A program made the translations under genes and the position numbers. From Squalus acanthias (lineage: Eukaryota), in contig CM059428.1 of NCBI GenBank assembly GCA_030390025.1, positions 164,734,001-164,798,000 of the forward strand: DNA of 64,000 nt. Reading direction: 5' to 3'. Shown here one piece after another: positions 14,051 to 64,000 of this stretch. Each line of letters starts with the position of its first letter. Position 1 is the first letter of the stretch. The notes under the pieces are model-generated. The model ran no database searches and had not been told where the DNA came from. It worked only from the letters and a program-made list of their open reading frames with translations.

Positions 14051-15368
14051 CTAGTTCCTTGAATAGTGTTTTGAGAACCCGAGCTTCTATGCTAGAGGTT
14101 CCCAAACTGGAAGGGGGGGGAGGCACAATGAGGTAACTGGGTGGGGGGTGGCACGTGGAAATGGCTAGCTGTAACTCGGTAATGCCTGCGTTTATGTATT
14201 TTCTCCATTGTTAGCACTGTAGCACTCCCCTCAACTCTGGCTGATTCCTGACTCTGCTCTCTCCAAAACTCAGGAATCCCCAGCTAACAGTTCCAGCTTA
14301 CAGATATTTCCAATACTCCTCAGTTTAAATATGTTTCAGTTTATATTAAAAACAAATTGTTTGCCTTCTGGTCTGTACCTCCTGTGCAGCGTAAATTTCT
14401 TTTTGGAAGTGCTCATGAGCCCTGGGGACCTCGCTGCCGTAGAGAAATAAAGTAGCAGCTTTCCCCCCCCCCACCCCCCCCCCCCCCCCCCCCAACGAGT
14501 CTGCTTCAAAGGTCTGTTAAAAGGTTCCATCCTCAAGGAGAGCGAGTTAGTTGGGGACTAATTCTGGAAACTGATTTTGACTGTCTCACCAGTCCTTTTG
14601 CGCCTGTCTTGAGAATCATGTTTGGAGCTGTTGATGGGGTCTTTTCGTATTAGAACTTTGCAGGATGTCTGCTGTTTCCTTCTGTTTGTTAGGTCATAGG
14701 CTTGTAATTGGGCAACAAATGCCAGCATGCATAGTAGGCTGCACTGCAATATAAAGTAGGCTAAGAGGCTCTGTGATGTTAAGGTCATGCAAAAATTTGA
14801 AAATATTAAAAATGAAAGATTATTTATAATGTGACTAGTTTGATTTTATTTATATATTACAGCAGTTAAACAGTTACATCTTCCAATTTATGTGAAGCTC
14901 AGGATACATTATGAAGGCCTATCCAGTATGATTTTATATTCTAAGGATAGCAAGTTAGCTTTGCTCAGGCTCACAACTAGATTATCGATCATAACCCACT
15001 AGTTTTCATGTTGTGTTCGCTTTATGTCCTGTGTTAAAATTAATGTATGTAAAAGAAAACTGATTTAATAATGTTCAAGGTTCCTTTATAATTTGGTTTA
15101 GAATGTTTGAATATTCCCGTTTAAACAATTATTCAAAGATGAAGTAGCTCTCGTTATTAGTGTGACATCCTTTCTCTGAAATGTGATTCTTTGAACTAGC
15201 ATTGCATACACAACAATAATTTGTTGCTGTGGCTGGGAGATCTCGCCTCTTTGAACATTTTAATGTTCAATCCCTAAACATTGGAGCATTGTAGAGATAC
15301 TTCAAGATATGTCGGTTGAGGTCGAACCATGTTCTTGTGATGCAATCAGCATTCTCTTTGTTTTGTAG

Positions 15369-15533
15369 GTGTGTTTCTTGCATGCAGTGTGGGGCAACCT
15401 CACCCGGTTTCAAGTGTGAATGGCAGAACAATTATACGCAGTGTGCTCCTTGTGCCAGCTTGGCTGTCTGCCCAGTCTGCAATAAGAGCTACAGGGAGGA
15501 GGAGTTTATTATACAATGCCGGCAGTGTGACAG
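15369..15533 (+). CDS. KMT2C: KMT2C exon (ex20), PHD finger, 165 nt
   Basis: ttgtag|G...AG|gtgggt; CVSCMQCGATSPGFKCEWQNNYTQCAPCASLAVCPVCNKSYREEEFIIQCRQCD (inside ORF 15316..15603). Confidence 0.97.
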
Positions 15534-15861
15534 GTGGGTGCATCCAATATATTCTCAGCATACGGACTGTATGAAGCAGAAGACTGAGACCAGTGAATTA
15601 TAATGAGTACACAACTATAATTACATACATCATGAACTACATACATCATTAAACAAGAATGCTGTCAAAAAACTAGTGTCAAAATGTGCATTAATCTATC
15701 TTAGGGCGTCAATTGGACAAGACATTTGGGCTAAGCAGGGCAGGTGTATCATTAAAAGTGTTGTGACATGCCTTGACAGAACCTGATAAAATATTTCTCT
15801 CTCAAACTTTTAGAATAAAAACCAATATAGAAAAGAAAACTACAAAATAAAATGGAAAACT

Positions 15862-16047
15862 GGAATTGCTGTAAATCTGAAATAAAAACAGAAAATGCTA
15901 GAAATACACAGCTGGTCAATCAGCATCTCTAAAGAGAAAGAGCACGTTATGACATTTTTGGGTGTAAACACTTCATCAGAATGTCATAACTTGTCTTTTC
16001 TCCTTACGGATACTGACTGACCTGCTGTGTATTTCCAGCATTTTCTG
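15862..16047. mobile_element. Old fold-back Penelope-derived element
   Basis: Inverted arms (cagaaaatgctagaaatacacagc...gttatgacatt / aatgtcataac...gctgtgtatttccagcattttctg); homologous to 45405-45627. Confidence 0.75.
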
Positions 16048-18423
16048 CATATTTTTTGGAAAAAAAATTGATTTCTGTAATTTAGCAGCAATAACTTCTG
16101 TGCAAATGCACTTGTGGCAGAGTGAAGCTTGACTAGACCTTGGCTTTATATATTCCACTAACTGCACTGAATGATTAAAAAGCAGTGCCAATGGCAAGAG
16201 GTCACCTACTACTCGTGCTGGACAGTGATTTTTGCAATCTAGAAGGACCAGAAAAACAAACTAATGGGTCAAATTGTGGCAGAAACGGCGACTAAATGGT
16301 GATATTAAATTGCATTGGATTCTAGAATTAAAGATAGTGGGCCAATTAACCTACGGGTTCATCTTTCATTTTCCTTTACCTATTTTCAGTTCTCCAGTAC
16401 AGTGGAAGCAGGTGTCTATTATTACTTAAATTAAGGGCACCAGTTTAATTGAAAGATCCTCGTCTATAGTTTCCTCTTCCATCAGGCTGATGGTCTTCAA
16501 TTACAGCTGGTGCACTCCTGTTCATTCATTTGGATTAATTGATGTCTTAGGGACGCAACAAAGGCAGACAACTTACTTTTTAACTGTTTAAACTCCAACT
16601 GCTGTACCTTCAACAGATCTTTTATGGTTATCGGCAACAGCCAGTCTGAACATACTCGGGTATTGTTTTTGCCCCCTTTCTTTAAAATTTTCCACTAAAT
16701 TAGAAGCTGGTAAAACATCTAATAAAACCATGGCTGCAGATATGGGGTGGGGGTATTTTTTGGACTTTAGGGAATCAAGGGATATGGGGATCGGGCGGGA
16801 AAGTGGAGTTAAGGTCGAAGATCAGCCATGATCTTACTGAATGGCGGAGCAGGGGCGAGGGGCCGAATGGCCTACTCCTAATTCTTATGTTAAAACCTAT
16901 TGAATGTTGTTTATAAATGTGAAACTTGTAAGGTACTGCTTAAAATGCTAATGACATTGTTTCTGTATATAGAAGAAAATCACTTGCATGTGAATGGGAA
17001 AACAAAGAAAATTGCACTCTGAATTTTCATTAAGATAACAAGTCCTGTCCCAACTTGTAATTCATCCTCAGAACATAGAGATGTGGTAACTGTGACCCAG
17101 TTTGAATTGAGCAGTAGGATACAAGGGAATGTGCAGGACTCGGAACAGACTATTGGAGTCTATCTGACCGGTCCAGTGTTTAGAAGATGTTGTGTACTGC
17201 TCTCGTACTCCTCAATCGGATACTTGCCAACTTAGAAAACTAAGCAAAAGCTGACATAAGCCCCAAATGGGTGACACCCGAAGAATGACCCTAATTATGA
17301 ACCAATGATGTGTGAAAACAGGTAGTTTCATGGCTTTGTAACTTATGCTGTTGGTGTATACAACATTGCTTCACTTGTATGGGGAAAAGCATAAGTACAT
17401 AAATGCATTTGTTTGGGGCCAAGCTCCCCTGGAAGATTTTTATTTTTTACATAAAAATTACGTATTCTGGTTAATTTTAAGCACCTTTCTATTCCACCAA
17501 AAATTGACATTTTGAATTTTTAATAGTTAAGCCAGGTCATCACTTCCTCAAAGGTTACATTCCCTCATCTGAACTGCCACCCCAGTTCAGAGGCATTCTA
17601 TCCTCGCCAGATCTAGTTCAGAGAGACCGCACCCCATCCAAAATCCCACCCTTCCACAGAGACATTCTCTGCTCCTGTAGCACTCCCCACTCATACTGAC
17701 ACACCTCTCCCTCCCCCAGTTCAGCCTGGCACTCTTCTCTGCCTCTGACCATGCCAATGCAAACTGTTACTTGTTTTCCCACACCCAGTTTATGCTGTCA
17801 ATCTTTTTCTGTCCATGCTCAGGCTGACCCTCTTTTTTCTCCAATTAATGTCAACACTTTGTCCTTACTCCATTAATGCTGGCGCACTCTTCCCCAAATA
17901 CCATCAATTAATCCTGGTGTCCTCCCCCACCCTAAAGTGCTATTCCTAGATTCTGCCCCTTCCCTCTCCCCTTCATTGCTGTTCATTGCCATCCATTTCC
18001 CTCCCTTTCTTTTCTCCTTCATTGCAATCCCTCCCCCCCGCACTCATTGCCATCCATTCATCTCCCCAATGCCAGCCACCCCATCTTGTTTCTACAGGAG
18101 TCCAGTTGCTAATGACCCCAGATATTCTGGCAGGGTAAACTGATGAGAATAATGCTGGTGCGCAACTGCACCTGTATGGGTTCACACTGAGGGGTGGGGA
18201 GGGGAAGTGAGAAAAAAGAAGCACTGGCAAAACGGCTGTTGCTACTGGTTCCAAAGCTTGTGGGCTTTTTTTGGTAGTGGTGGGGGGGCACGGACGGATG
18301 AGCCAAGTTGGTGTCCATTTCGTCTATGTGTAACCCCTTTGGATATTTGTTGTGTTGAAGGCACTATACAAATAAGTATCCTTTTTTTTGAAATATAATT
18401 TGTGAACCTCTTTATGTTCTCAG

Positions 18424-20760: not shown

Positions 20761-21220
20761 GGGCGGGGAGGAAGGGAGGAAAAAGTTACTTTCAAGTTAA
20801 ATTTTGAAATCCTATAACAAGCAAGATAATAGAAGCAAAAGCATTAGGATTTTCCCAATACAATTAGGTGCCAGGATGCGGGAGTCAGTATTCTAAAGGA
20901 ATGAGCTTTGATCGGCAGAATGACCTTTTCTCATCTCTGACTCAGTTTTGTGTGCACTGGCATATTAACTGAAACTAGCAACTGGTACATCATAGACTTG
21001 CGACTGATTCCTCGTGTGGTAAATTGGCTAGCCTCATCAAAGCTGTGTTAAGGCGGGGATGTTAATGGCGAGTATAAAAATTGGTGAAAATAGTGAACAG
21101 CTCTTGGATGCCTCCTACAGAAGTTTTTAGAATTGGGTCAGTAGGAATTTCCTATCTCATTTGGATAAGAAAATCCTTAACAGGTCATTCAGTATAACCT
21201 GTGTTTTTCTCGGAAAACAG

Positions 21221-21439
21221 AACCGACACGGACGTATACACAGGATGGTGTCTGCCTGACTGAGTTGGGTATGTCACAGCTCCAAAGCCTCAGTATTGCT
21301 CCACCACGTCGGAAGCGACCCAAGCCAAAGTTGAAGCTAAAGATCATAAATCAGAACAGTGTGGCTGTTTTGCAAACTCCACCTGATCCCCAGTCTGAAC
21401 AGTCCAGAGACATGGATGGAGATATGGATGATAGCAGAG
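21221..21439 (+). CDS. KMT2C: KMT2C exon (ex23), 219 nt
   Basis: aaacag|AA...G|gtacaa; PTRTYTQDGVCLTELGMSQLQSLSIAPPRRKRPKPKLKLKIINQNSVAVLQTPPDP...DDSR. Confidence 0.95.
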
Positions 21440-23602
21440 GTACAATATTACGGCTGATCCCCTTCATTACTTAAGTGAAGGGAAGAAAAAGGTTTTCTTG
21501 TTGAATGTTTATATGTCACTTGTGTATGTGCTTGTCCAAATGAGATAACTGAGTAGAGGAAATGCCTGAAAACATTTGCTATAATGGCCCCATGCATTTC
21601 AAATAACAAAACCTCTGACCAGTGCATTGAAATACCAGTCTCATGCTTTACTGCACCAGCATGGCTTTACCACTTCCTACTTAGTCTGGCTTTTCTGAGT
21701 GGAATTACTTAACTCTGATTTGCAGAAACTTCAGTCAAGGAAATTTAGTTTGTAGCCTCCTTGGTTGGGAGCAGACTAATTGTGATGCTGCATTTTACTG
21801 GGTTTCATAAACATTCAAGTGCATACATTTACGGGAAAAGACTAATTGAATAAACGAAAAATTGTTAATCCTAATCTTAGTCACTCCCAGCCTAAACTTG
21901 GTTAATGCCATTTCTGTCATTCAGGTCTCAGTTCTCCTCTCCTGAGATGCCAATTAAGATGGCTTCTAGGGATTAGGGCTCCTCTCTTTTCTATGCTTCA
22001 CGCAAAATCAGATCGCTCAAAATCAATTAATTGCGTTCAGTTGTTCGCTACACTTGTAGCCAAGTGCAGTTTATATGAAGTTATTCCATGTTTTTCTATA
22101 AAAGTTATCTTCGCCACATTTGCAGTCACTTTCTCTTTTTCTCGCTCGCTTCTCTTTCTCGCGCGCCCCTCTTTTGCGCGTGCTCTCCCCGGCCCCCCTC
22201 ATTCCTGATACCTTTTAAAACTTGTTGTTTAGATCCTTCATAAAGTTGTAAGATGTTCAGCAAATTAAAAATAGTGGGATCTTCAAGTGAAGCTGAGATT
22301 ATTTTAATGTGGATCAGAACTGAGACCGATTTAAAAATGACATATTGCAGACTGGCCTCAGCTCATGCATCAGAAATGAATAAATTCCTAAGAATATTAT
22401 GCTCTCTGTTGTCCAGACGCAGTTGCCATTGAATGAGAATTATCTTGAAAAGGAGTTGCACTCGAGTATTTATACTACCCAGTGAGTGCCCAATGGTGCA
22501 AATCCAGATGAGTGTATTCATCCTGATTTTGCCTTGTAATTTGAAATATTTATTTCACTAAGTAAGAAGATTTGTTTGCAATGGTGCTTCTTCCATCTGT
22601 ATCCATATGGGGCTTCTGTGGTGGCAACAACTATAGCAACACAAGCTGAAACTCATTGGCCATATAAATTGGATAGTGCTACATCCCATTCTCTTTTTAC
22701 TTTTATTAAAAAAAACTATTTTGTCCAATTCTGTTTGCTTTTCTCTCTGTTCCACTGTACCGTTAGTTGAACTTGTATATGTCTTGCAATGTGACCTCAT
22801 TGTGATGAATGTGTCTTTTAATGTCCAGCATAAAAAAACTATAAATGTTCTAATTAAGACCTGATTGCTGTCTGCTTGAATCCTAAATCTGCAGTGCCAT
22901 AGTAAACCTGTTCTAGGTTTATAATTAAGTTTTACCTGAGCACTGCACAAACTCCAAACTTTGAAGTCTAAAATTTGAAGTACATAACTATTAGTAATAA
23001 TCAGAACATTTGTTCTTTCTATGTGTAATTAGTAGCTTTTAGTAACATAATGAAACCACAACCCAAGTTAAATGTAAAATGATTTGGTGAAACAAAATTG
23101 GGAAATCGGGTTTGCACAATTGGATCCAAATTGCTGTGAATTCAAAACTAATTAGTCCTGAGTGAAATTAGTTTTGTGATTCTCCAATTAGTTTTCAAGC
23201 CATAGAAATCTGTGGCAAAAAACTTTTCCTCAATTCCAAACTAAATACAGTGTTGGCCTTTGTGTAGTGCAAAACCAGTAACATTTTGGATTCATTCTGA
23301 AGGGAGCTACTTTTAGATTATTTCCTTATGCTTCTCAGTCAGTTACTTCACAAATTCATATCCCTTTAAGCTTAAAACTATAATTATTTGCAGCGTAATT
23401 GTACACCTGCATAAATGTACAATCATTTGTGTAGTGTAGTTCAGAGATGTCCAACTTTTTGGAGATAGGTGGCCGTCAAAACCAGTGAGTGGGCCATACA
23501 ATTACGCTGAAAGGTGAGAGTTCATAAACAAAAAAATCCAAAAACCACTGTAAACCCCTATACACAAAGAACAATGCAAATAAATAGATTGTTTTGAGCA
23601 CA

Positions 23603-23972
23603 GACACTACAGTGCAGTACTGAGGGAGTGCTGCACTGTCAGAGGTGCTGTCTTTTGGATGAGGTGTTAAACCGAGACCCCGTCTGCTCTCTCAAGTGGA
23701 CATTAAAGATCCTATGGCACTATTTCGAAGAAGAGCAGGGGAGTTCTCCCCGGTTTCTTGGTCAATATTTATACCTCAACCAACGTCACTAAAACAGATT
23801 ATCTGCTTATCACATTGCTGTTTGTAGGAGCTTGCTGTGCGCAAATTGGCTGCCGCGTTTCCCACATTAAAACAGTGACTACACTTCAAAAAAAAAACTA
23901 CTTCATTGGTTGCAACGTGCTTTGGGGCGTCCTGAGTTTGTGAAAGGCGCTATATAAATGCAAGTCTTTCTT
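23603..23972 (+). mobile_element. 5'-truncated Deu-domain SINE
   Basis: Collinear and highly similar to 25367-25727. Confidence 0.85.
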
Positions 23973-25268: not shown

Positions 25269-25727
25269 GGTGTCAGCTGTGGCTCAGCGGTAGCACTCTT
25301 GCCTCTGACTCAGAAGGTTGTGGGTACCAGTGCCATTTCAGAGACCTGAGCACAAAAATCTAGGCTGACACTCCAGTGCAGTGCTGAGGGAGCGCTGCAC
25401 TGTCGGAGGTGCCGTCTTTTGGATGAGGTGTTAAACCGAAGCCCCGTCTGCTCTCAGGTGGACGTAAAAGATCCAATGGCACTATTTCGAAGAAGAGCAG
25501 GAGAGTTATCCCCGGTGTCCTGGCCAATATCTATCCCTCAGTCAACATAACAAAAACAGATTATTTCGTCATTATCACATTGCTGTTTGTGGGAGCTTGC
25601 TGTGCGCAAATTGGCTGCCACGTTTCCTACATTACAACAGTGACTACACTTCAAAAGTACTTCATTGGCTGTGAAGTGCTTTGGGACATCCGGTGGTCAT
25701 GAAAGACGCTGTATAAATGCAAGACTT
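25269..25727 (+). mobile_element. Full-length tRNA-head Deu-domain SINE (SacSINE1/AmnSINE1-related)
   Basis: A-box TGGCTCAGCGG (25280-25290), degenerate B-box, Deu-type core, gtttgtgggagcttgctgtgcgcaaattggctgcc block, L2-like tail. Confidence 0.85.
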
Positions 25728-26354
25728 CCTTGTAGCGCCTTAAAATACTTAGCACAAGTTGGCAGACACTAGAGAATAATAAGTCACCCTTTTCCTCCTC
25801 TGTTTTATTTGATATGTAAAAGCAGCTCAACAAGTGCCAGACAACAGTGAGATCTGTTGGGAGTTTGCAGCAGTTCCTCTTTCTCTTACTCACTTTCTTT
25901 CTAGCTGACTCCCACTCCCTTCTCCATTTATGCTACTAGGCCCTGAATCCAAATCTACTTCGTATCTACTGTCTGCACTTGTGTCTCTGTAATTTTGTCA
26001 TGATATCATTCGATGATTCCTTTGTAACATCCCGACTACCGCCCTCCAAATTTTCCTATTTTAATTTTCACCCTTTCCACAATTTTTTCTTGAGCACAGA
26101 AACCATCCCAATCGATTGTTATTTTTGCGTTACTTTTATCTCACCAACTTTGCACCCATCTGACTAAATTATAGACTTTGATGTGCGGTGACATTTTAAT
26201 TACCAAGTGCTGCAAAACAAGTATATTCTTGCTAATGTGATATTAATCCTCAATTAACTTCTTTCTCTCGAGAGCTACTCCTGGAGTGGCTTAGTGTACT
26301 GGAGCGTCAACACAATAGACCACAGAATAATGAGATGTGTATTGCAATTTCTAT

Positions 26355-27103
26355 GGCCCGGATTTTCCGATCGGAGGCTTCCTGCGTGCGGATGCCTCCA
26401 ATCTGGAAAAAATCTACAAACTTACCTGCTGGCTTCGTAGGTCCCGACACTTCCGCTCCTGGGCCTCTCCTGGTGCGTGCGCGCACAGAGGCCCAGGTGT
26501 CCCAGAGGCGCAGGCAGTTCGCAAGTGTCCCTGGGATCACGTGGGCCATGGGGAACCAATGGAAGAAGGGAATCCCCCTTCACACTTTTGACAGGTCTCT
26601 CCGGATAGACCTGTCAAAAGTATGAATGGGGATCACTCAAAAAAAACACACTAAAACATTAAATACTTTTTTTTAAATCACGTATTTAAAATTAGTTAAA
26701 ATTACATTAAATTACATTTTAAACAAAAATTTAATTTTTGGAAAGAAATTTTTTTACGGGTCTAAAATAAAACTTTTTTTAAAACTATGTTTAAATTATA
26801 AATGAGTGAGGGGAAAAAAAATATTATTTTACTTTTTTAAACTCTTATGCTGGCCTTATGCCTGCTTTTACCAGGCGTAAGATTATTAAAGGTTTTCAGC
26901 CGGCGGAGGTTCTGCAGAAAGCGGAACTCTTCACCCGCAGAGGCCCTTCTCCCAGGCAGGCGTCCGATCTGTCAAGATAATTCTTGACAGATCGGAAGTG
27001 CCGGTTTTCAGCACATGCACTTCGCATGCCTGAAACTGGCACTTGCGAGGCCCCTACGGGTGTGTACACAGCTCGTACACAGAGGGATCGGAAAATATGG
27101 GCC
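26355..27103. mobile_element. MITE-like non-autonomous DNA element, ~750 bp (PIF/Harbinger-like ends)
   Basis: TIRs ggcccggattttccgatc / gatcggaaaatatgggcc (16/18 match); GC-rich ends with an AT-rich centre; second copy at 52582-53325. Confidence 0.8.
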
Positions 27104-38623: not shown

Positions 38624-40039
38624 TCACAGAGATGGTTACAAAGAAGATATCCAAAGAAACTAAAATGAAATGGAGCTAGATGAAAAATTGAAAGGGAGAG
38701 AAAGAATAAGGCTATATAGGCATGCATGCTTCTTATCACTGCTTATCTGATTATCGCCAAGACTGCAACTTCCTTGGAACAAAGGATCCCTAGCTCTGCT
38801 ATTGAAGATATGAAAAATAATGTCATGGCGAGAGGAGGCTCAATGTTTAACAAGGAACTGTGACTTAGTGGGATCATTTGCCTATAATTCTTAGTCACAT
38901 TTTCTTGCTTAGTGCATGCGGATTTTATATGGAGTTATAAAAGCAGTTGATACCACATAAGGGACATGGCAAAGATAATGGCACGTGAAACTAAGGAGAC
39001 TTTGGCCACATGGTTAGAGAAATGGTTGGAAGAGAGGAAGCAAAGGGTTGGGATAAAAGGAAATTTCTCCAAGATGTGATGTGATATGTGGTGTTTCACA
39101 GGGGTCTGTATTGCAGCTGCCCTTATTTACTGTACATAAATGATGCTTACGAATATTGATAGCACTGCTGAAATTTGCTGATGATGCCAAATTAGGGGTA
39201 TGGCAGATTTTAACATGAATTTTTGAAAGACTCCAGAAGGACATAGACTAGAAGATGGGCAGATAAATGGCAGATGCAGTTCAATGTGGAGAAATGTGAA
39301 GTCATGCATTTTGGAAGCAAGACTAGGGAAAGCCAATAAAAAAGGCAAATTGAACCCTTGCTATTTTATTCAGAGGTATAAAATAGAAAAGAAAGAAGGT
39401 AATGTTGAACTTGTACAAGACTTTAGTTGGAGTAATGTGTATAGTATTGAGCACTGTGTAGTATGAAGGATATAAAAGTAGTAAAAGGGGCAGTGTAGAT
39501 TCAATAAGATGTTCGTGAGGATGAGGGGTTACAATTATGAAGAGATACTTGAATAGTTAAGTCTTACAGAAGTCTTCAAGATTATGAAGGGTTATAATCA
39601 TAGAACCATTGAATAGTATAGCACAGAAGGAGGCTATTCAGCCCATCGAGTCTGCGCCGGCACTTTCGAAGAGAATTCCAGTTAGTCCCACTTCCCCTGC
39701 TCTTTCTCCGTATCTCTGCAATTTTTTTCTCCTTCAAGTATTTATCCAATTCACTTTTGAAGGCTACTATTGAATCTGTATCCACCATCCTATCAGGAAA
39801 TCCATTCCAAATCCTAACCACTCGTTATGTAAAACAGTTTTTCCTCATGGAATTGAGGGTAATATATTAGCATGGATAGAGGATTGGTTGAAGGACAGAA
39901 AACAGACTGTCGGAATAAAGGGTAATTTTCAAGTTGGCAGGCTGTTACTGGTGGGGTACTGCAAGGATCAGTGCTGGGGCCTCAGCTATTTACAATCTAT
40001 ATTAATGACTTAGATGAAGGGACCAAGTGTAATGTATCC

Positions 40040-40833
40040 CTTACACCTCCCCTCTTCCCACTGTCCAGGGCCCCAAACACCCCTTCCAGGTGAAACAGCG
40101 ATTTACTTGTACTTCCTGCAATTTAGTATACTGTATTCGCTGCTCACGATGTGGTCTCCTCTACATTGGGGAGACCAAACGCAGATTGGGTGACCGCTTT
40201 GCGGAACACCTCCGTTCAGTCCGTAAGGGGGACCCCGAGCTCCCGGTGGCCTGTCACTTTAATTCACCGCTTCACTCCCACTCTGACCTCACCGTCCTCG
40301 GCCTATTACACTGTTCCACTGAAGCGCAGCGTAAGCTCGAGGAACAGCACCTCATCTTTCGTTTAGGCACGCTACAGCCCTCTGGACTCAATATCGAGTT
40401 CAACAATTTTAGATCATAACCTCAGCTCCAATCACATTTATATTTTATTTTTTCCACCCTTTTATTTGGCCCCCCCCCCCCACCTTTTTTTTTTCTCCTA
40501 GAAGCTGGCAGCTGTCCTTCATTCTGCCAGTGGATTTCACACTTCTTTCAGCCTTAATCTGTCACATTTACACCACCTCTAGCCTTGCATATCTCTTAAT
40601 GTCTCTTAATGTCTCTTCATCTCCCCCTTTGTTCTTTTATCCCCCCCCTTTTCCCAGCTTTACTCTGGCCTTAAATCTATTTGATTTCCGGCTCTTCACA
40701 GTTCTGATGAAAGGTCATCGACCTGAAACGTTAACTCTCTTTCTCTCTCCACGGATGCTGCCTGGCCTGCTGAGTTTTTCCAGCGTTTTCTGTTGTTATT
40801 TCAGATTTCCAGCATCCGCAGTATTTTGCTATC
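40040..40833 (+). mobile_element. 5'-truncated Penelope-like element (GIY-YIG endonuclease C-terminus plus pseudo-LTR with hammerhead)
   Basis: ORF 40090..40419 FTCTSCNLVYCIRCSRCGLLYIGETKRRLGDRFAEH...GLNIEF; 13-bp TSD GTGTAATGTATCC at 40027-40039 and 40834-40846. Confidence 0.92.
40700..40736 (+). ncRNA. Minimal type-I hammerhead ribozyme motif (PLE-associated)
   Basis: AGUU-CUGAUGA-A-AGGUC(AUC)GACCU-GAAA-CG-UU-AACU; palindromic AACGUU stem III. Confidence 0.8.
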
Positions 40834-42334
40834 GTGTAATGTATCCAAGTTTGCTGACGATAAAAAGCTTGGTGGGAAAGTAAGCTGTGACAAGGACACG
40901 AAGAGCCTGCAAAGGGATATAGACAGGTCAAGTCAATGGGCAATAAGGTGGCAGATGGAGTGTAATGTGGGGAAATGGGAGGTTATTCACTTTGGTAGGA
41001 AGAATAGAAAAGCAGAATATTTTTTACATCCTGAGAAACTAATGTTGGTGTTCAGAGGGATTTGGGTATCCTTGTACACAAAACACAAAGTTAACTGCAG
41101 GTACAGCAAGCAGTTGGAAGGCAAATGGTATGTTAGCCTTTATTGCAAAGGGATTGGAGTACAAGAGTAAGGAAGTTTTGCTGCAATTGTACAGGGCTTT
41201 GGTGAGACTACACCTGGAGTACTGTGTATAGTTTTGGTCTCTACCTAAGGAAGGATATACTTGCCTTAGAGCAGGTGCAATGAGGGTTCACTAGATTGAT
41301 TCCTGAGATGAGAGGGTTGTCCGATGAGGAGAGATTGAGTAGAATGGGCCTATACTCTCTGCAGTTTAGAAGAATGAGAGGTGATCTCATTGAAACATAT
41401 ATAAGATTCTGAAGGGGATTGACAGGGTTGATGCCGAGAGGCTGTTTCCCTTGCTCTTGAGAGTCTAGAACTAGGGGCATAGTCTCAGGATAAGGGGTTG
41501 GTCATTTAAGACTGAGATGAGGAGGAATGTCTTCACTGAGTTGTGAATCTTTGGAATTCTCCACCCCCAGAGGGCTATGGATGCTCAGTCGTTGAGTATA
41601 TTCAAGGCTGAGATCGATAGATTTTTGGAGTCCATGGGAATCAAGTGATATGGGGATCGGGTGGGAAAGCGGAGTTGAGGTCGAAGATCATCCCGGAGCA
41701 GGCTCGAAGGGCTATATGGCCAACTCCTGGTCCTATTTCTTATGTTCTCATTGTCACCTCTGGTTCTTTTGCGAATCACCTTAAATGTGAATAGTATATA
41801 GATTCTTTGTGTTGAAACAGTAACAAAAGGGCACAAATTTTAGAGAATCACAAAGAATTAACGAAGAGGTTACAAACAACTTCTTTACACTACTTAGAAT
41901 TTTGAATTCTCTGCCATAAGCCATTGTTGAAGCAGAGTCCGTAAATAGTTGCTTGAAAAAGAGGAATAGTAAAGGGGATGTGAGTGCGCAGAAGAATGGG
42001 ATTAGACTGGGTCGCATGTGAAGAAAAACATCAGCAATGCCTGGAATCATAGAATGTTACAGCACAGACTTGTTGCTTGTATGTCTGTTTCTGTGCTGTA
42101 GCATTCTGAATCTAGGCATTGCAATACTCTGGTCGCTTCTAGCTGAGTAACGATCTGCACAGGACTTTCGCAAACCAGAAAGTTTTATTCAAGACGAGTT
42201 ACTGACAATAGATCATAAAGTTTCTCATTTCAAAGCCATAAGGCAACTAATGAGTACCCCCAGCTTCATGAAGCACAGGTTTCCAGTGTATTTACTGATT
42301 TCTGTCAAATTAATACAACTAACTTTTTGTTTAG

Positions 42335-44338: not shown

Positions 44339-45404
44339 TATAAATATGTACTTCAAAAATCACTCAAAATATGGTAAAGGTCTGTCATGTCTGTAAATTC
44401 AGACATCGATTTAATATGGCACTTGAAAATTTGTATTTTAATTATCGGCATAGTTATAGATTGCACAGAATATATTAAATAATTGGAAGGCATGCTGTTC
44501 TTTGTACTCCAGTTAGGCTGCAGCTGTTTTCAAAATATACAAATTTAGTGTGTAATCATTTGTGGTTTTAGTGAAGGATATAGCATATAATGCTATAAAT
44601 TGTATTTGCAGTGTTTGTGCTTTATAACCATTAATGAAGAATTTCACTTTTTGTATGAGAAATTCCAACTCGTCATTTTATTTTCCACTTCTCCCCATAA
44701 CCAAATTCCTTTGGGGAAAGTTCTTGGTGCTCACCATTGGTCATCCCTAAAGAAAGGCCCTTTCCTTAACCACACTGCAAACCGCAGACTGTTCCTACAG
44801 TAGGGATTAGCACATTAAATCTGATTTTTGGTTCTTGGAATGCAAGGTTGGGACTTGAATAACTTAAATCTGTAATAAGTTTTGTAAGCAACTGCTGTCA
44901 CAGCACTTACTGAGATGGACAGTGGTAGTCAGAAGTCCAAATTAATCTAAACCAGGGAAATTATGGGATAACCTAAATTGGACCAATTTCAGTACAAACC
45001 GAATTACATAGCACACCTCTTCCCCCTAGGGAAATTCAGAGTGAGAGTGTCAAAAATAGGGCGGGAGCTCAGATCTTCTGGTTGAGAATCCATGAAAATG
45101 TTTGCATTACAACTACTTGGCTCTCATGCTACAATCCTTTTATAACAAAAATGAGTTGTACTGGCCAACTGATTTGCAAAATAAAGAGGAAAATTGGCTT
45201 CACCTATTCAAATAGTGTTCAAGACTGAAGGACAAAAGCATTTTTAAATCTTTTTTCTGGTAACTTGCAACTATAAGGGTTACCATTTGAAATTTGCCCT
45301 TTGAGGTTGGATGTGTTTTCCAAGCACATCACCAGAGTTTGGCAGTACTCCTGTATCATTTCAAGAAAGCCCAAATACAAATAAACCAGATGCTTTATTA
45401 CCAT

Positions 45405-45627
45405 ACAAAAGCAAAATACTGCTGATGCTGGAAATCTGAAATAAAAACAGAAAATGCTGGAAATACTCAGCAGGTCAGGCAACATCTGTGGAGAGAGAAA
45501 CCGAGTTAACGTTTCAGGTCGATGACCCTTCGTCAGAACTGGTCAGAAGGGTCATCGACCTGAAACGTTGACTCTGTTTCTCTCTCCACAGATGCTGCCT
45601 GACCTGCTGAGTATTTCCAGCATTTTC
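45405..45627. mobile_element. Fold-back Penelope-derived mini-element
   Basis: ~84-bp inverted arms (45448-45531 / 45546-45629); 14-bp TSD TGCTTTATTACCAT at 45391-45404 and 45628-45641. Confidence 0.9.
45504..45540 (-). ncRNA. Minimal hammerhead ribozyme motif
   Basis: Reverse complement: AGUU-CUGACGA-A-GGGUC(AUC)GACCU-GAAA-CG-UU-AACU. Confidence 0.8.
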
Positions 45628-45963
45628 TGCTTTATTACCATGTTGTGAGTTCAAGTTTTGCTCCAGGACTGGAGCCATAATCTAGGCTAAAACTTCAGTG
45701 CAGTACCAAAGTTCCATCTTTTGGATGAGACAGTAAATTGAGGCCCCTATCTGCCTATTCAGGTGGATATCAAAAAAAACCATGCCACTTTTCTAAGAGC
45801 AGAGTTCTCTGTGTGCATTTCTGCCTCCATCGCCACCACTAAAACACATAAATTAGTCATCCATCTCATTGATCATGATGCGGAGATGCCGGTGTTGGAC
45901 TGGGGTGGACAAAAGTGAGAAGTCGCACAACACCAGGTTCTCATCCAACAGCTTTATTTGAAA

Positions 45964-46000
45964 TCACAAGCTTTCGGAGCGCTGCTCCTTCGTCAGGTGA
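45964..46000 (-). ncRNA. Minimal hammerhead ribozyme motif (antisense copy)
   Basis: Exact reverse complement of 46799-46835. Confidence 0.8.
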
Positions 46001-46574
46001 AGTGAAGAAATACAAATGGGCACAGCATATATAGACAGAGAACAATGCCTGTGCAGAGAACAATGCCAGACGACTACAATTAATCTTTCTAACTGCCCTT
46101 TATCACACCTCGGCAGAGAGACAATCACGGCAATCAAATCCAACCAGGTCAGTCAGGAAGACATTACATCAAAGACGATAGCAAAATACAACAAGTTCCG
46201 CACCCATGAGGACGGCCTCAACCGGGATCTTGGGTTCATGTCACGCTACATGTAACCCCACCTGACGTAGAGTCATCCAGACTCGAGTCGTCGTTGGCTT
46301 GTTCACAGATGCGGCCGGGCCTGCTGTGATTTTCAGTAAAAAAAAAAGTTTAAAGTTTTTGGTTTTCCATACAGACTGTAGCATCTGCCACATTAGACCC
46401 CCTGTGACCCCACCTCATTGTCTTTGTTGTATTTTGCTATCGTCTTTGATGTAATGTCTTCCTGACTGATCTGGTTGGATTTGATTGCCGTGATTGTCTC
46501 TCTGCCAAGGTGTGATAAAGGGCAGTTAGAAAGATTAATTGTAGTCGTCTGACATTGTTCTCTGCACAGGCATT

Positions 46575-46752
46575 ACATAGAAACATAGAAAATAGGTACA
46601 GGAGTAGACCATTCGGTCCTTCGAGCCTGCACCGCCATTCAATGCGTTCATGGCTGAACATGCTACCTCAGTACCCCATTCCTGCTTTCTCGCCATACCC
46701 CTTGATCCCCCTAGTTGTGAGTGTTATATCTAACTCCCTTTTGAATATATAT
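46575..46752 (-). mobile_element. CR1 3' end inserted in the right arm of the fold-back element
   Basis: acatagaaacatagaa tail; absent from the left arm; flanked by ATT on both sides. Confidence 0.85.
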
Positions 46753-46798
46753 ATTGATCTCTGTCTATATATGCTGTGCCCATTTGTATTTCTTCACT

Positions 46799-46835
46799 TC
46801 ACCTGACGAAGGAGCAGCGCTCCGAAAGCTTGTGA
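46799..46835 (+). ncRNA. Minimal type-I hammerhead ribozyme motif
   Basis: UCAC-CUGACGA-A-GGAGC(AGC)GCUCC-GAAA-GC-UU-GUGA; palindromic AAGCUU stem III. Confidence 0.8.
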
Positions 46836-47250
46836 TTTCAAATAAAGCTGTTGGACTATAACCTGGTGTTGTGCGACTTCTCACTTTTGTCATCTCATTG
46901 ATGTTTACGGGACCTTGCTTTGCACAAATTAGCTGCCATACTTGCCTGCAAAAAGAATAGTGAGTATATTTCAAAAAGTAATTCATTGATCATAAAGCAC
47001 TTTGGGACATTCGGAGAACTTGAAAGGTGCTATATAAATGCAGATTTTTTTTTTCCAGATTGGCTGCCGTTTTTGCCTACATAACAGCAATGACTGCACT
47101 CCCCCCCCCCCCCCCCAAAAAAAAAATGGTTCTAAAGTGCTTTGGGACTTTTTGAGGCTATTACACTATGTAAATGCAAGTCATTAATTACATGGCATAA
47201 TAATAGTTTGACGGTTGTTCATTTTTCTTTCCCCTGCCCCTTTCATAAAG

Positions 47251-47398
47251 GAGATGGTGGATTTACCAGGGTGCCAGCAATGAATGGCGTGATTGGGCCA
47301 CACCCACAACACCAAACATCTTTAGCACCTGGAGGTGGACGCTGCCTCACCAGCACTTACTCTTCTATCCCTCAGTCACCATTCTCTGATAGCAGCCG
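47251..47398 (+). CDS. KMT2C: KMT2C exon (ex32), 148 nt
   Basis: ataaag|GA...CG|gtgtgt; GDGGFTRVPAMNGVIGPHPQH...SSIPQSPFSDSSR; phases fit neighbours. Confidence 0.88.
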
Positions 47399-52581: not shown

Positions 52582-53325
52582 GGGCTGGAAATTGCGTCGG
52601 AGGCTTCCCACGGGCAAATGCCTCCAAACCGCAAAAGAAGTCCGCACCTACCCGGTGCCTCCGTACCTTCGGACTCTTGCGGTCCTGGGCCTGCAGGCGT
52701 ATGCCTGCGTAAAGGCCCACACATCCCAGGGGCGCATGATGTTTGCAAGCAACCCTGGGATCACGTGAACCGGGCCCAAACAATCACAAAGGGGGATTCC
52801 TATTATGCTTCTTGGGATTCCATTTACATACGGAATCCCCATAAGCATAATAGGAATCCCCTAAAAAACACTTCCATCCCACTTAAATAAAAAATAAATC
52901 ATCACGTTAAAAATGAATTAAAACACAATTTAATTAAACATTTAAAACAAAAATTTATTTAAAAAAAAATTTAAACATTTTTAAAGGGGCCAAAATAACC
53001 TAAACTAATTTTAAAGGTTTTTGAATGTTTAAATCATTTTTAAAAATGTATTTTAATATTTATTTAGACCCTTACGCTGGTAAAAGAGAGCCTTACGCCT
53101 GCTTTTACCAGGCGTAAGAGTTTCGTGGGCATTCGCTGGGCAGCAGTTGGGCAAATAGCCCAACTTTCCGCCAGCAAATGTCCATTTCCTGCACATTCGT
53201 ACAATCTGTCAAGCTGAAACTTGACAGATCGCAAGTTCCGGTTTTCGTGCATGCGCATCGCACGTGGAAACCCGGAACTTGGGCACTTAAACGTACGCGG
53301 CCATAGGCCTCGGAAAATCCAAGCC
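52582..53325. mobile_element. MITE-like element, same family as 26355-27103
   Basis: ATT|gggctggaaattgcg ... cggaaaatccaagcc|ATT; shared blocks tcggaggcttcc, ctgggatcacgtg, gcctgcttttaccaggcgtaag, cttgacagatcg. Confidence 0.8.
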
Positions 53326-61270: not shown

Positions 61271-62714
61271 ATAGATGAATAAAACTTATAGTGGAAAGCT
61301 ATTTTATATGCACATGGTTTTCATGTGATAGGTTGGAATTGTTTTTAAAAACCATATCAAAAGCCCCCATAAAATTGCTTGATTTTTACTTTTATTTTTA
61401 GGTTTTTAAAAAAAAAAAAAATTATTCTCTATCCTCAATAGAACATTTTCCTGCAAAAATGGCCTTGGTGGTCATACTTTGTTGAGAATTTTGGATATGA
61501 ATTTGTTGGAAGGTGTTCAACCACTAGGGTAGTGTGTTATTTGTCTGACTTTTCATTACCCATCAAGGAGGTTCCAAGTTCGGTGTTCTCAGCCAAGGAA
61601 GTGGTGGAACAACTGATAAACCTCCTCCAGCAAGTCAGATAAGCTTGCCAACTATGCTTTCTTGTTTTTGTTGTTCTTGAAAATTGCCCAGAAAGATCAG
61701 GTACTCCATTCCTCATCACACAAGCAAAGTTCTTCCTCTTTGACGACCCATATCCTCCCTTGCCTTGGGTAAACAGATGCCCCTCCCCCAGCCAGCACCT
61801 ACTTGCCAACATATTCTTGCCAACATATTCTGGCTGTCTGAGCCACTATCTGTGTTGCAACACTCACCTACAGAATATTTTTTCATTGTACCACTATTTT
61901 TGCATTTTCAGGGCTACTTCAAAAAACCAACATAATCTCACATTTCCACGGAGGGAATTTGTGATATGATTACAGTGCCTTTTAGCAGAAGCACAATGGC
62001 ATAAATTGTTTAATATTTTCTCTTTGCTATGCAAAAAATTGGTAGGCTGCTTGCAGCTTTTTTTAAAGTCCCATTTATTATGGCTATTCCGTCTTTCCCT
62101 TTTCTGAACCATACGTATATATTCAGCACCATGCCTACTCCCCATTCCATGTCTCCTTATCCATTGTTGAAGTGAAACCTGATCAAAAACTTTCTGAAAG
62201 TCGAAGTATATAATAGTATTTCCGTTGTCCATTTTGTCAGTGATATCTTTGGAAAAAATGACAACAAATTTCCTACAGACTTCAAACAATAATTGGAACA
62301 ATGTGCATATAATTAGAGTAATCAGAATAGTATTGACTGGATATTGGGTCTAAAATGTAACTTTGTTTTTAAGACAAAACTGTTATCTGGTCTATTGATC
62401 ATACTGGTGTAAAAAGGCACCTGGGAAATTATTTATTACAATAATACATGTGTAGCATCCCAAGTTGCCAGGTTATACCTGCATGAATTGCAAATTGTGC
62501 ACCAGAGTTTACAGTAGGTGGATTTCTCAGCATTCAATTCTTGACACTTGCACATTTTAAGTGTGCCAGACAAAACAATATTTTGATTGTTTCAGCAATG
62601 GGAAAGTTTTTAAATACAATTTTAAGGTTTTTGCTTCAGCTTCCATATTAGCAATATTTGTCATTCAAGTTACATAAACCTGATCATTTTATCTTTCGTC
62701 TCATATCAAAACAG

Positions 62715-64000
62715 CAAATGCGCCAGAAGAGTAAGCAGCAAGCCAAGATTGAAGCTACACAGAAACTAGAACAAGTGAAACATGAGCAGCAGCAACAGCA
62801 ACAACAGTTTGGGTCCCATCAGTCGTCTGCAGGGGAGGATTCCAACAGCCCTAAAGCAGGTGAACAGGACAATGGGCACTTGTCTCCTCTGCAGCAATTG
62901 CCTAAAGAAGGGTTTACAAGGCCTCAGGTTGCTGGCACTTCTGCATCAACATCAACAGATGATGTCTTTCTAAGACCTCAGGCTCCTCCACCGACCCCAA
63001 CCAGGATACCATTGCAAGATCCATTTACACAGCCCCAGACTTCACAGTCACAGTCACCACAAATGTATTCTCCAGCTGCTAATGCATCAAGACCGTCATC
63101 TCCTTGGGACCCATATGCTAAAATGGTAGGGACACCAAGACCACCACCAGTTGTTAGAAGAAATTCAGTGTCCTCTTTAGATTCTTGTGCTGTTCCTCAA
63201 GGTGTAACCAGGCCATCCCCAGCTACTGAACAGATAGAGAGAAATAGGCCTTCATTAGCTAATGAGTCTTTTGGGTCACTATCACCAGTCAGCAATGATC
63301 CTTATGCAAAAGCACCCGATACTCCTAGACCCATCATGACAATATCAACAGATCATTTTTCAAAACCATTAGGATTGCCAAGACCACCTATGAATCCTGA
63401 TCCATCAGGGAATATGCAAGGAATTGCAAATGATCCCTTTGCTAAACCTGCACTTAGGCCTGATATGTTTCCTAGACTTCAGATGCCGCATAATCGAATG
63501 GTGCCTCATGATGTATATTTAAGATCTCAACGGGCACCAAGTCCAGCAGGTATTGAAGGTGGAAGTGGACACTTGTTTAAGACACCAATGCCACCACTTC
63601 AGTCGCCTCAAGATCCTTATGCATCCATGCCTCTAACCCCAAGACGTAATCCTGTCGATCCATATGAAAGAACTGTATTGACCCCAAGACCTATGGATAA
63701 TTTTCCACAGAGCCCAGTGCAGTCCCAGTCCCAGGCAATTGATCCTTACACACAGCAACCACATACGCCTCGTCCTGTGAATGAGCCATTTTCACACAGT
63801 CAGAGAATTCCCCGGCAGACCCAGGGTGACATGTTTGTTCAACCAGGGTCAATGTCAAGATGCTCTCCTCAGGATCCTTATTCACAGCCTCCTGGAACCC
63901 CTCGGCCTACAAGTGATCCTTATTCACAGCCTCCTGGAACCCCTCGGCCTACAAGTGATCCTTATTCACAACCTCCTGGAACCCCTCGGCCTACAAGTGA
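62715..64000 (+). CDS. KMT2C: KMT2C large exon (ex36), Pro/Gln-rich, open at the window end
   Basis: aaacag|CAA ATG CGC; QMRQKSKQQAKIEATQKLEQVKHEQQQQQQQFGS...DPYAKMVGTPRPPP...DPYSQPPGTPRP; absent from the ORF track, consistent with no stop in the window. Confidence 0.96.
63873..64000 (+). repeat. Coding minisatellite, 42-nt unit, at least 3 copies (DPYSQPPGTPRPTS)
   Basis: Units at 63873-63914, 63915-63956 and 63957-63998, with a fourth starting; one synonymous difference (CAG/CAA). Confidence 0.95.

Follow-up and report, generated by a model that had tools for sequence, protein, structure and literature searches.

What kind of element is the fold-back unit at 45862-46902 of this 64,000-nt stretch of Squalus acanthias DNA (hereafter the window): a recombinant non-autonomous element built from two Penelope (PLE) lineages, or the product of a single insertion? 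The original prediction, made from the letters, took the former view. We call the two lineages family A and family B, and consider in turn the anatomy of the unit, the origin of its loop, and the predicted fold of its RNA.

Anatomy of the unit and its surroundings

The fold-back unit consists of the following parts.

45862-45873, plus: left target-site duplication (TSD), CATCTCATTGAT, 12 bp, 12/12 with the right copy
45874-45908, minus: Penelope 'tail', 35 nt, unpaired, on the left end only
45909-46194, minus: left arm, family-A 3' end as an inverted, 5'-truncated copy, 286 nt
45964-46000, minus: family-A minimal type I hammerhead of the left arm (motif scan)
46192-46194, plus: inversion-junction microhomology CAA, 3 nt, common to the left-arm end and the endonuclease frame
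46424-46574, plus: right arm, first part, family-A 3' UTR, inverted-repeat partner of the left arm
46753-46890, plus: right arm, second part, tailless pLTR end, inverted-repeat partner of the left arm
46799-46835, plus: family-A minimal type I hammerhead of the right arm (motif scan)
46891-46902, plus: right TSD, CATCTCATTGAT, 12/12 with the left copy

The predicted architecture held throughout. The 12-bp TSD was identical (12/12) at both unit ends, the 35-nt extension at 45874-45908 had no partner, and the loop between the arms had the claimed length of 229 nt. The left arm was the reverse complement of 46424-46574 joined to 46753-46890, and these 286-bp arms, described as near-perfect, differed by seven mismatches, three of them clustered within 4 nt. 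An eighth mismatch in the arm alignment was an edge artefact within the TSD, and the tail would measure 34 instead of 35 nt if the C at 46891 were assigned to the arm. Since only seven mismatches separate the arms, the fold-back unit is a young insertion. The tail sequence also followed 46891 in family-A contigs, as loose ends in two of the sequencing runs introduced below (X3 and X8).

The mismatch cluster, holding three of the seven mismatches, lies at 45940-45943 against 46856-46859, and its left-arm version is complementary at 12 of 13 positions to the SINE flank at 45718-45730. The change at 45940-45943 is perhaps the mark of a template switch, or chance. We also observed an 18-nt tandem duplication at 46036-46067 that is present in both arms; the LINE piece of the right arm was inserted inside it, and the contigs showed several length variants nearby.

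The unit lies within one older repeat and has itself received another.

45642-45861, plus: host SINE, left part, rejoining with 46903-47053
46903-47053, plus: host SINE, right part, with an alignment across the empty site
46575-46752, minus: 5'-truncated LINE 3' end, 178 nt, in the right arm only, ATT on both sides

After deletion in silico of the element and one TSD, the flanks rejoined as a repeat, and two more copies in the window (near 25367-25731 and 23603-23972) aligned across the empty site. These flanks bear out the claim that the unit sits in a SINE, and we take the host repeat to be DeuSINE/SacSINE1-like. The LINE insert was restricted to the right arm, as had been proposed for a CR1 end; we presume it to be CR1-like. 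It matched the ends of all five other LINE copies compared in the window, and over 152 nt (46599-46750) it showed 0 differences from an X8 contig of high depth. A joint 46571-46753, which represents the form lacking the insert, was seen in three of the four runs. The LINE piece is probably young and would have arrived last.

Origin of the loop

Five features were assigned within the loop.

46193-46255, plus: end of a putative Neptune-type Penelope ORF, last 20 codons and stop (endonuclease C-terminus)
46251-46263, plus: inner 13-nt direct repeat, first copy, likely an old TSD, 12/13 with the second copy
46262-46402, plus: putative family-B 3' end captured from the second Penelope lineage, ~140 nt, with broken hammerhead core, downstream terminus and tail
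46262-46287, plus: broken family-B hammerhead core (A9 = T; GAAA = GAGT)
46403-46415, plus: inner 13-nt direct repeat, second copy, 12/13 with the first copy

The last codons of a PLE endonuclease had been recognised in the loop, and we confirmed 20 codons and a stop. The 20-residue peptide was 19/20 identical to the C-terminus of P0001-P0003 from Heptranchias perlo and 65-90% identical to four further relatives, and all named protein matches were from sharks. Matching shark proteins of the P0003 type bear an RT, a C-x4-C-x2-C linker and a GIY-YIG-type end; the C-x(2-5)-CxxC linker is present in the nearest relatives P0003, P0004 and P0006, and the corresponding region is absent at the locus. 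A Pfam search of the locus, where just the last 20 codons of the ORF are present, gave 0 hits. Family A is probably a Neptune-type PLE, a class that rests on the proteins of its relatives and for which Nematis is a possible alternative. Exact-pattern scans with the loop or the endonuclease end returned 0 matches in viral contigs, prokaryote genomes and metagenomes. The family-A endonuclease segment is also included in shark gene models P0001, P0002, P0005, P0008 and P0010-P0015 (e.g. XRCC5, FAM204A and septin 5a isoforms), through either true exonisation or an annotation artefact.

Family B is represented elsewhere in the window by several copies, including the following insertions.

15867-16048: older and decayed fold-back of family B, arms 79% identical
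40028-40847, plus: family-B sense copy with the last 128 endonuclease codons, 3' UTR, hammerhead, tail and 12-bp TSD, within a LINE fragment
45391-45641: family-B fold-back insertion with 14-bp TSD, ~39-nt tail, 88-nt arms and 14-nt loop

The endonuclease end of the sense copy gave a Pfam GIY-YIG match (E 5.4e-5). The fold-back at 45391-45641, ~220-250 nt left of the element, has two hammerheads, of which the minus-strand one is complete and the plus-strand one truncated. Loop positions 46259-46402 aligned along their whole length to family B with a local score of 59, against 25 ± 4.5 (maximum 48) in 1000 dinucleotide shuffles, and the likeness noted earlier between the sequence behind the loop motif and the other PLE family of the window was thus upheld. 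Families A and B are two distinct lineages, because their endonucleases are 40% identical over 105 aa; with the loop piece matching family B, the unit does contain two PLE lineages, as proposed. The third, decayed hammerhead-like motif of another type was found as well. It lacks the conserved hammerhead core, with T in place of A9 and GAGT in place of GAAA.

The captured piece is likely an old nested, 5'-truncated family-B insertion into an ancestral family-A master copy. None of 500 dinucleotide shuffles reached 12 matches within 10 nt of the inner-repeat places, which had been picked after the repeat had been seen. The AGCATC tail anchor lies 23 nt from the repeat in the loop and 24 and 25 nt from the TSD in two true family-B copies, and the family-B TSDs in the window measure 12 and 14 nt. 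Compared with the true copies, the captured piece has indels, an added A-run and the broken core. In the Heptranchias read-through models P0001 and P0002, the residues fit the first inner repeat and then other sequence, as judged from the protein. A different route, agreeing with this reading in all else, is that the B piece entered by template switch or RNA recombination and that the 13-nt repeat is incidental. Both lineages have the same orientation, and template jumps were proposed for PLEs in the accessible text of PMC3846280. Moreover, the 14 nt preceding the second repeat bear no resemblance to the ends of the family-B copies in the window, which keeps a template switch in consideration. 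We nevertheless regard it as unlikely, given a 12/13 repeat of family-B TSD size placed where B copies end, and a related Heptranchias family in which, as read from the proteins P0001 and P0002, the first repeat leads into unrelated sequence.

Whether the chimeric loop is local or shared was addressed with contigs from four of 24 sequencing runs, aligned to 46180-47095, a query that covers only 15 nt of the left arm. The runs comprised X3, a DNA run of organism A that contains 0.66 of the sampled words; X6 and X8, two runs guessed to be RNA, from organisms A and B, respectively; and X20, from organism G. Each of the four had loose ends ahead of 46192 that ran into the endonuclease frame (36, 3, 4 and 28 contigs in X3, X6, X8 and X20, respectively), so that family copies carry the ORF upstream where the locus has the inverted arm. 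Among the 32 pieces listed, the endonuclease-to-B junction at 46262 was bridged by at least five (four from X20, one from X6), with 31 or more letters per side and 8-13 differences each from the window, and the family-B end at 46388 by at least three (two from X3, one from X6). We read the bridging pieces as other copies with the same joins. None of these 32 pieces spanned the whole loop, the two junctions being on separate pieces, and no X8 piece among them bridged either junction; the best X3 piece across 46262, among the pieces listed, had just ~22 letters on the right.

In these contigs, the core letters disrupting the third hammerhead are those of the family majority and do not represent local decay. 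Position 46268 corresponds to core position 9, which is normally A; here the T of the window was the majority letter in 4/4 runs, with C as the other listed letter and no A listed at 5 in 100 in the four runs; at 46285-46288, no change was listed in any of them. In X20, the captured piece was nearer to true family B, with G at 46271 in 74 contigs and extra letters behind 46304. The capture is likely older than the split of organisms A and G, because the piece of organism G is closer to true B. Loose ends behind 46250 (eight contigs in X6, five in X8) led to relatives with a different UTR, hence not all copies of the wider family carry the captured piece. Loose ends at 46250 and 46275 in X3, X6 and X8 belonged to relatives that share the endonuclease end and have a different or shortened UTR. 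An X3 loose end before 46389 was considered as a sign of a sister subfamily lacking the B piece; this reading was rejected, since its last 11 letters are the family's own variants (agreement 0.68).

Summed X3 contig depth was 0.49-0.66 million over the loop motif against 6.67 for the right-flank contig, a contrast only and not a copy number. At 46539, both arms have T, while X3 contigs read C (320,816/324,814 of the summed depth); the shared T fits one template or later conversion. As to whether the chimera is multi-copy, the question posed by the original prediction, the joins of the loop recur in diverged copies, and the chimeric loop is multi-copy. On this contig evidence, an abundant family, apparently of Neptune type, has the loop as its ordinary 3' UTR, and the chimerism is old and family-wide, in at least two organisms.

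Formation of the unit, predicted fold and possible host gene

The reading that we prefer, with a probability of roughly 0.85, is that an abundant Neptune-type PLE gave rise to the unit in one 5'-truncated insertion, made of the sense 3' end and an inverted 3' end with the tail, and that the UTR of this PLE already carried the family-B piece. In the accessible text of PMC8557442 and PMC3846280, an inverted 5'-truncated copy together with a 30-40-bp tail is typical of PLE insertions, and in the latter source an insertion of this plan has TSDs of 8-10 bp, a tail of 31 bp and microhomology at the junction, and a PLE-in-PLE insertion is described as well. Both target strands were cut and extended in vitro, the tail being the stretch between two RT start sites, according to the available part of PMC11167929. 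The features of EN+ PLE insertions found at the locus were an inverted 5'-truncated copy, a one-ended tail, a TSD with an empty site, and a pLTR hammerhead motif. The locus fits the published insertion product because contigs pass 46891 into the tail, the arms share the letter at 46539, and the neighbouring family-B insertion at 45391-45641 has the same plan of TSD, tail and inverted arm.

The course of events may have been the following. A family-B element, cut short at its hammerhead, would have inserted just behind the family-A stop codon and duplicated 13 nt. The master would then have multiplied, the B hammerhead losing core letters and the piece spreading as ordinary UTR in at least two organisms. 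Recently, the family-A enzyme would have nicked the SINE with a 12-nt stagger, and two cDNAs would have been made from the two ends, one from the outer start site (with the tail) and the other from the inner (without it). Both cDNAs were presumably cut short and joined via CAA. The LINE 3' end would then have inserted into the right arm. The resulting copy has no enzyme and is likely inert.

The two arm hammerheads are identical, 37 nt each, and contain the core CUGANGA / GAAA / UH. Of the claim that the unit holds two intact opposite hammerheads, the identical motifs with the conserved core stand. They are intact only in the sense of a minimal hammerhead, whose stem III cannot be closed. The Rfam search produced no hammerhead, with 0 matches at gathering in the whole window and, at E up to 10 around the element, eight matches that were all of other kinds and far below gathering. 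The full RNA was predicted to fold as a rod (about -627 and -650 kcal/mol), in agreement with the rod-like RNA proposed before. In the full plus-strand fold, the pairing probability of hammerhead stems I and II was 0.000, and the mean arm-to-arm probability over the hammerhead was 0.9996; by this prediction, the arm duplex of a full transcript sequesters the intact hammerhead. The idea of a ribozyme available from either strand survives as one minimal motif per strand in the letters, and is opposed by the 0.000 stem probability in the plus-strand fold and by the behaviour of single motifs. The accessible text of PMC4209133 reports no in vitro cleavage for a single minimal PLE hammerhead and low cleavage for dimers; opposite-strand hammerhead pairs ~100-700 bp apart were reported there in 2014.

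The unit also lies among plus-strand features of a possible host gene, of which the last three listed here are tentative.

15295-15600, plus: exon matching KMT2C
21181-21471, plus: further KMT2C-like exon candidate
47251-47398, plus: further KMT2C-like exon candidate
62652-63998, plus: further KMT2C-like exon candidate

The exon at 15295-15600 matched KMT2C in a database search (E 1.5e-28). The candidate exon at ~47250-47398 (plus strand) had no homolog (0/10 candidates). A long plus-strand open frame occupies 62652-63998, which we take to be an exon of the KMT2C-like gene. Given the KMT2C exon, the AG...GT stretch at 47251-47398 and the frame at 62652-63998, the element appears to be intronic in a KMT2C-like gene. 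In a plus-strand pre-mRNA, the antisense arm would be synthesised before the hammerhead and be available for pairing with it, and the element, if transcribed in host pre-mRNA, would form a long duplex hiding its one sense hammerhead. Another repeat occurs in the window as two diverged copies (26371-27026 and 52597-53262), with short palindromes near 26572-26633 and 52792-52861.

It is quite improbable that the hairpin matters to the host, through editing of the duplex or an effect on splicing of the exon ~350 nt downstream. The plus-strand KMT2C match (E 1.5e-28), the AG...GT-bounded open stretch at 47251-47398 and the predicted arm duplex (mean pair probability 0.9996 over the hammerhead) would suit such a role, but the insertion is young, with seven arm mismatches, and the nearby candidate exon is without a homolog.

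Very doubtful, too, is the proposal that the captured B terminus was retained as a working second RT start site, usable by the B or the A enzyme. Many diverged copies, from two organisms, have kept the piece, in which the B tail is complete, and in a related element RT starts at defined sites around the tail (available part of PMC11167929). However, the piece is decayed relative to true B (indels, A-run, broken core) and is not the same in organisms A and G, no loose end was seen behind 46390-46402 among the 24 listed, and the accessible text of PMC3846280 records no cross-mobilisation between the two PLE types compared there. Equal doubt attaches to the broader idea that a shark Neptune-type lineage domesticated the terminus of an unrelated Penelope lineage, with the captured tail as a second start site, giving one RNA that either of two RTs could mobilise.

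Hardly credible is the view of the unit as a recombinant, non-autonomous fold-back element, mobile as a whole and offering a ribozyme on both strands. In its favour are the clean TSD, the near-identity of the arms, the stability of the predicted rod, the presence of two lineages and coverage of the family sequence in two runs guessed to be RNA (X6, X8). Against it, contigs leave at 46192 into the endonuclease frame in 4/4 runs, no strand-change joint 46194/46424 occurs among the 15 joints listed (the query holding only 15 nt of the left arm), the fold-back with its tail equals the published insertion product and the plan of the neighbouring family-B copy, the hammerhead stems have a probability of 0.000 in the full plus-strand fold, and single minimal motifs did not cleave in vitro (PMC4209133, accessible text). 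This part of the original prediction is not supported. It had itself named a loop that is simply the normal 3' UTR of a single catalogued PLE as what would refute it, and a normal UTR of an abundant family is in substance what we found.

Comparison with known systems

Animal non-LTR retrozymes share with the unit a PLE-derived, non-coding nature and type I hammerheads (bioRxiv 10.64898/2026.07.22.740005, in the part available). Those described there are head-to-tail tandem units with a complete motif each, whereas here one inverted pair has one complete motif per strand. The two or more head-to-tail units with complete hammerheads that define a retrozyme are absent from the locus.

With the minimal type I PLE hammerheads in the accessible text of PMC4209133, our motifs share the 4-bp stem I, the extra nucleotide between 9 and 10.1, the G-C at 10.1-11.1, the palindromic 15-16 region (AGCU in place of a closed stem III) and the occurrence in pairs on opposite strands. 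Unlike those, they have a stem II of 5 bp, are ~800 nt apart (~620 without the LINE piece) and have a broken third motif between them.

The closest relatives of family A are shark Neptune PLEs from Heptranchias perlo (P0003), Mustelus, Scyliorhinus and Chiloscyllium, in which the C-terminal 20 residues agree with the loop peptide (19/20 for P0003). Besides an RT and a C-x(2-5)-CxxC linker, these relatives have a GIY-YIG core with two cysteines. In contrast to the locus, the read-through of the Heptranchias relative suggests a different UTR after the shared first repeat. Among the papers searched, we found no account of a PLE family with the terminus of another lineage in its UTR. The captured terminus marks a subfamily and offers a natural test of the specificity of a Penelope terminus for its own enzyme. 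Copies ending at this tail would demonstrate cross-mobilisation of two lineages whose endonucleases are 40% identical.

The best match is the canonical EN+ PLE insertion of the Pen2a_Av type, as presented in the available parts of PMC3846280 and PMC8557442. Shared are the variable-length TSD, the inverted 5'-truncated copy adjoining the 5' end, the one-ended 30-40-nt tail and the microhomology junction, and PLE-in-PLE insertions are known in that system. The locus differs in that nearly the whole ORF is missing and in that the nested PLE piece has itself multiplied as the UTR of its host family. The locus is a teaching case of four stacked insertions, and the element is a dead Penelope insertion of the ordinary sort, whose UTR contains a family-wide fossil.
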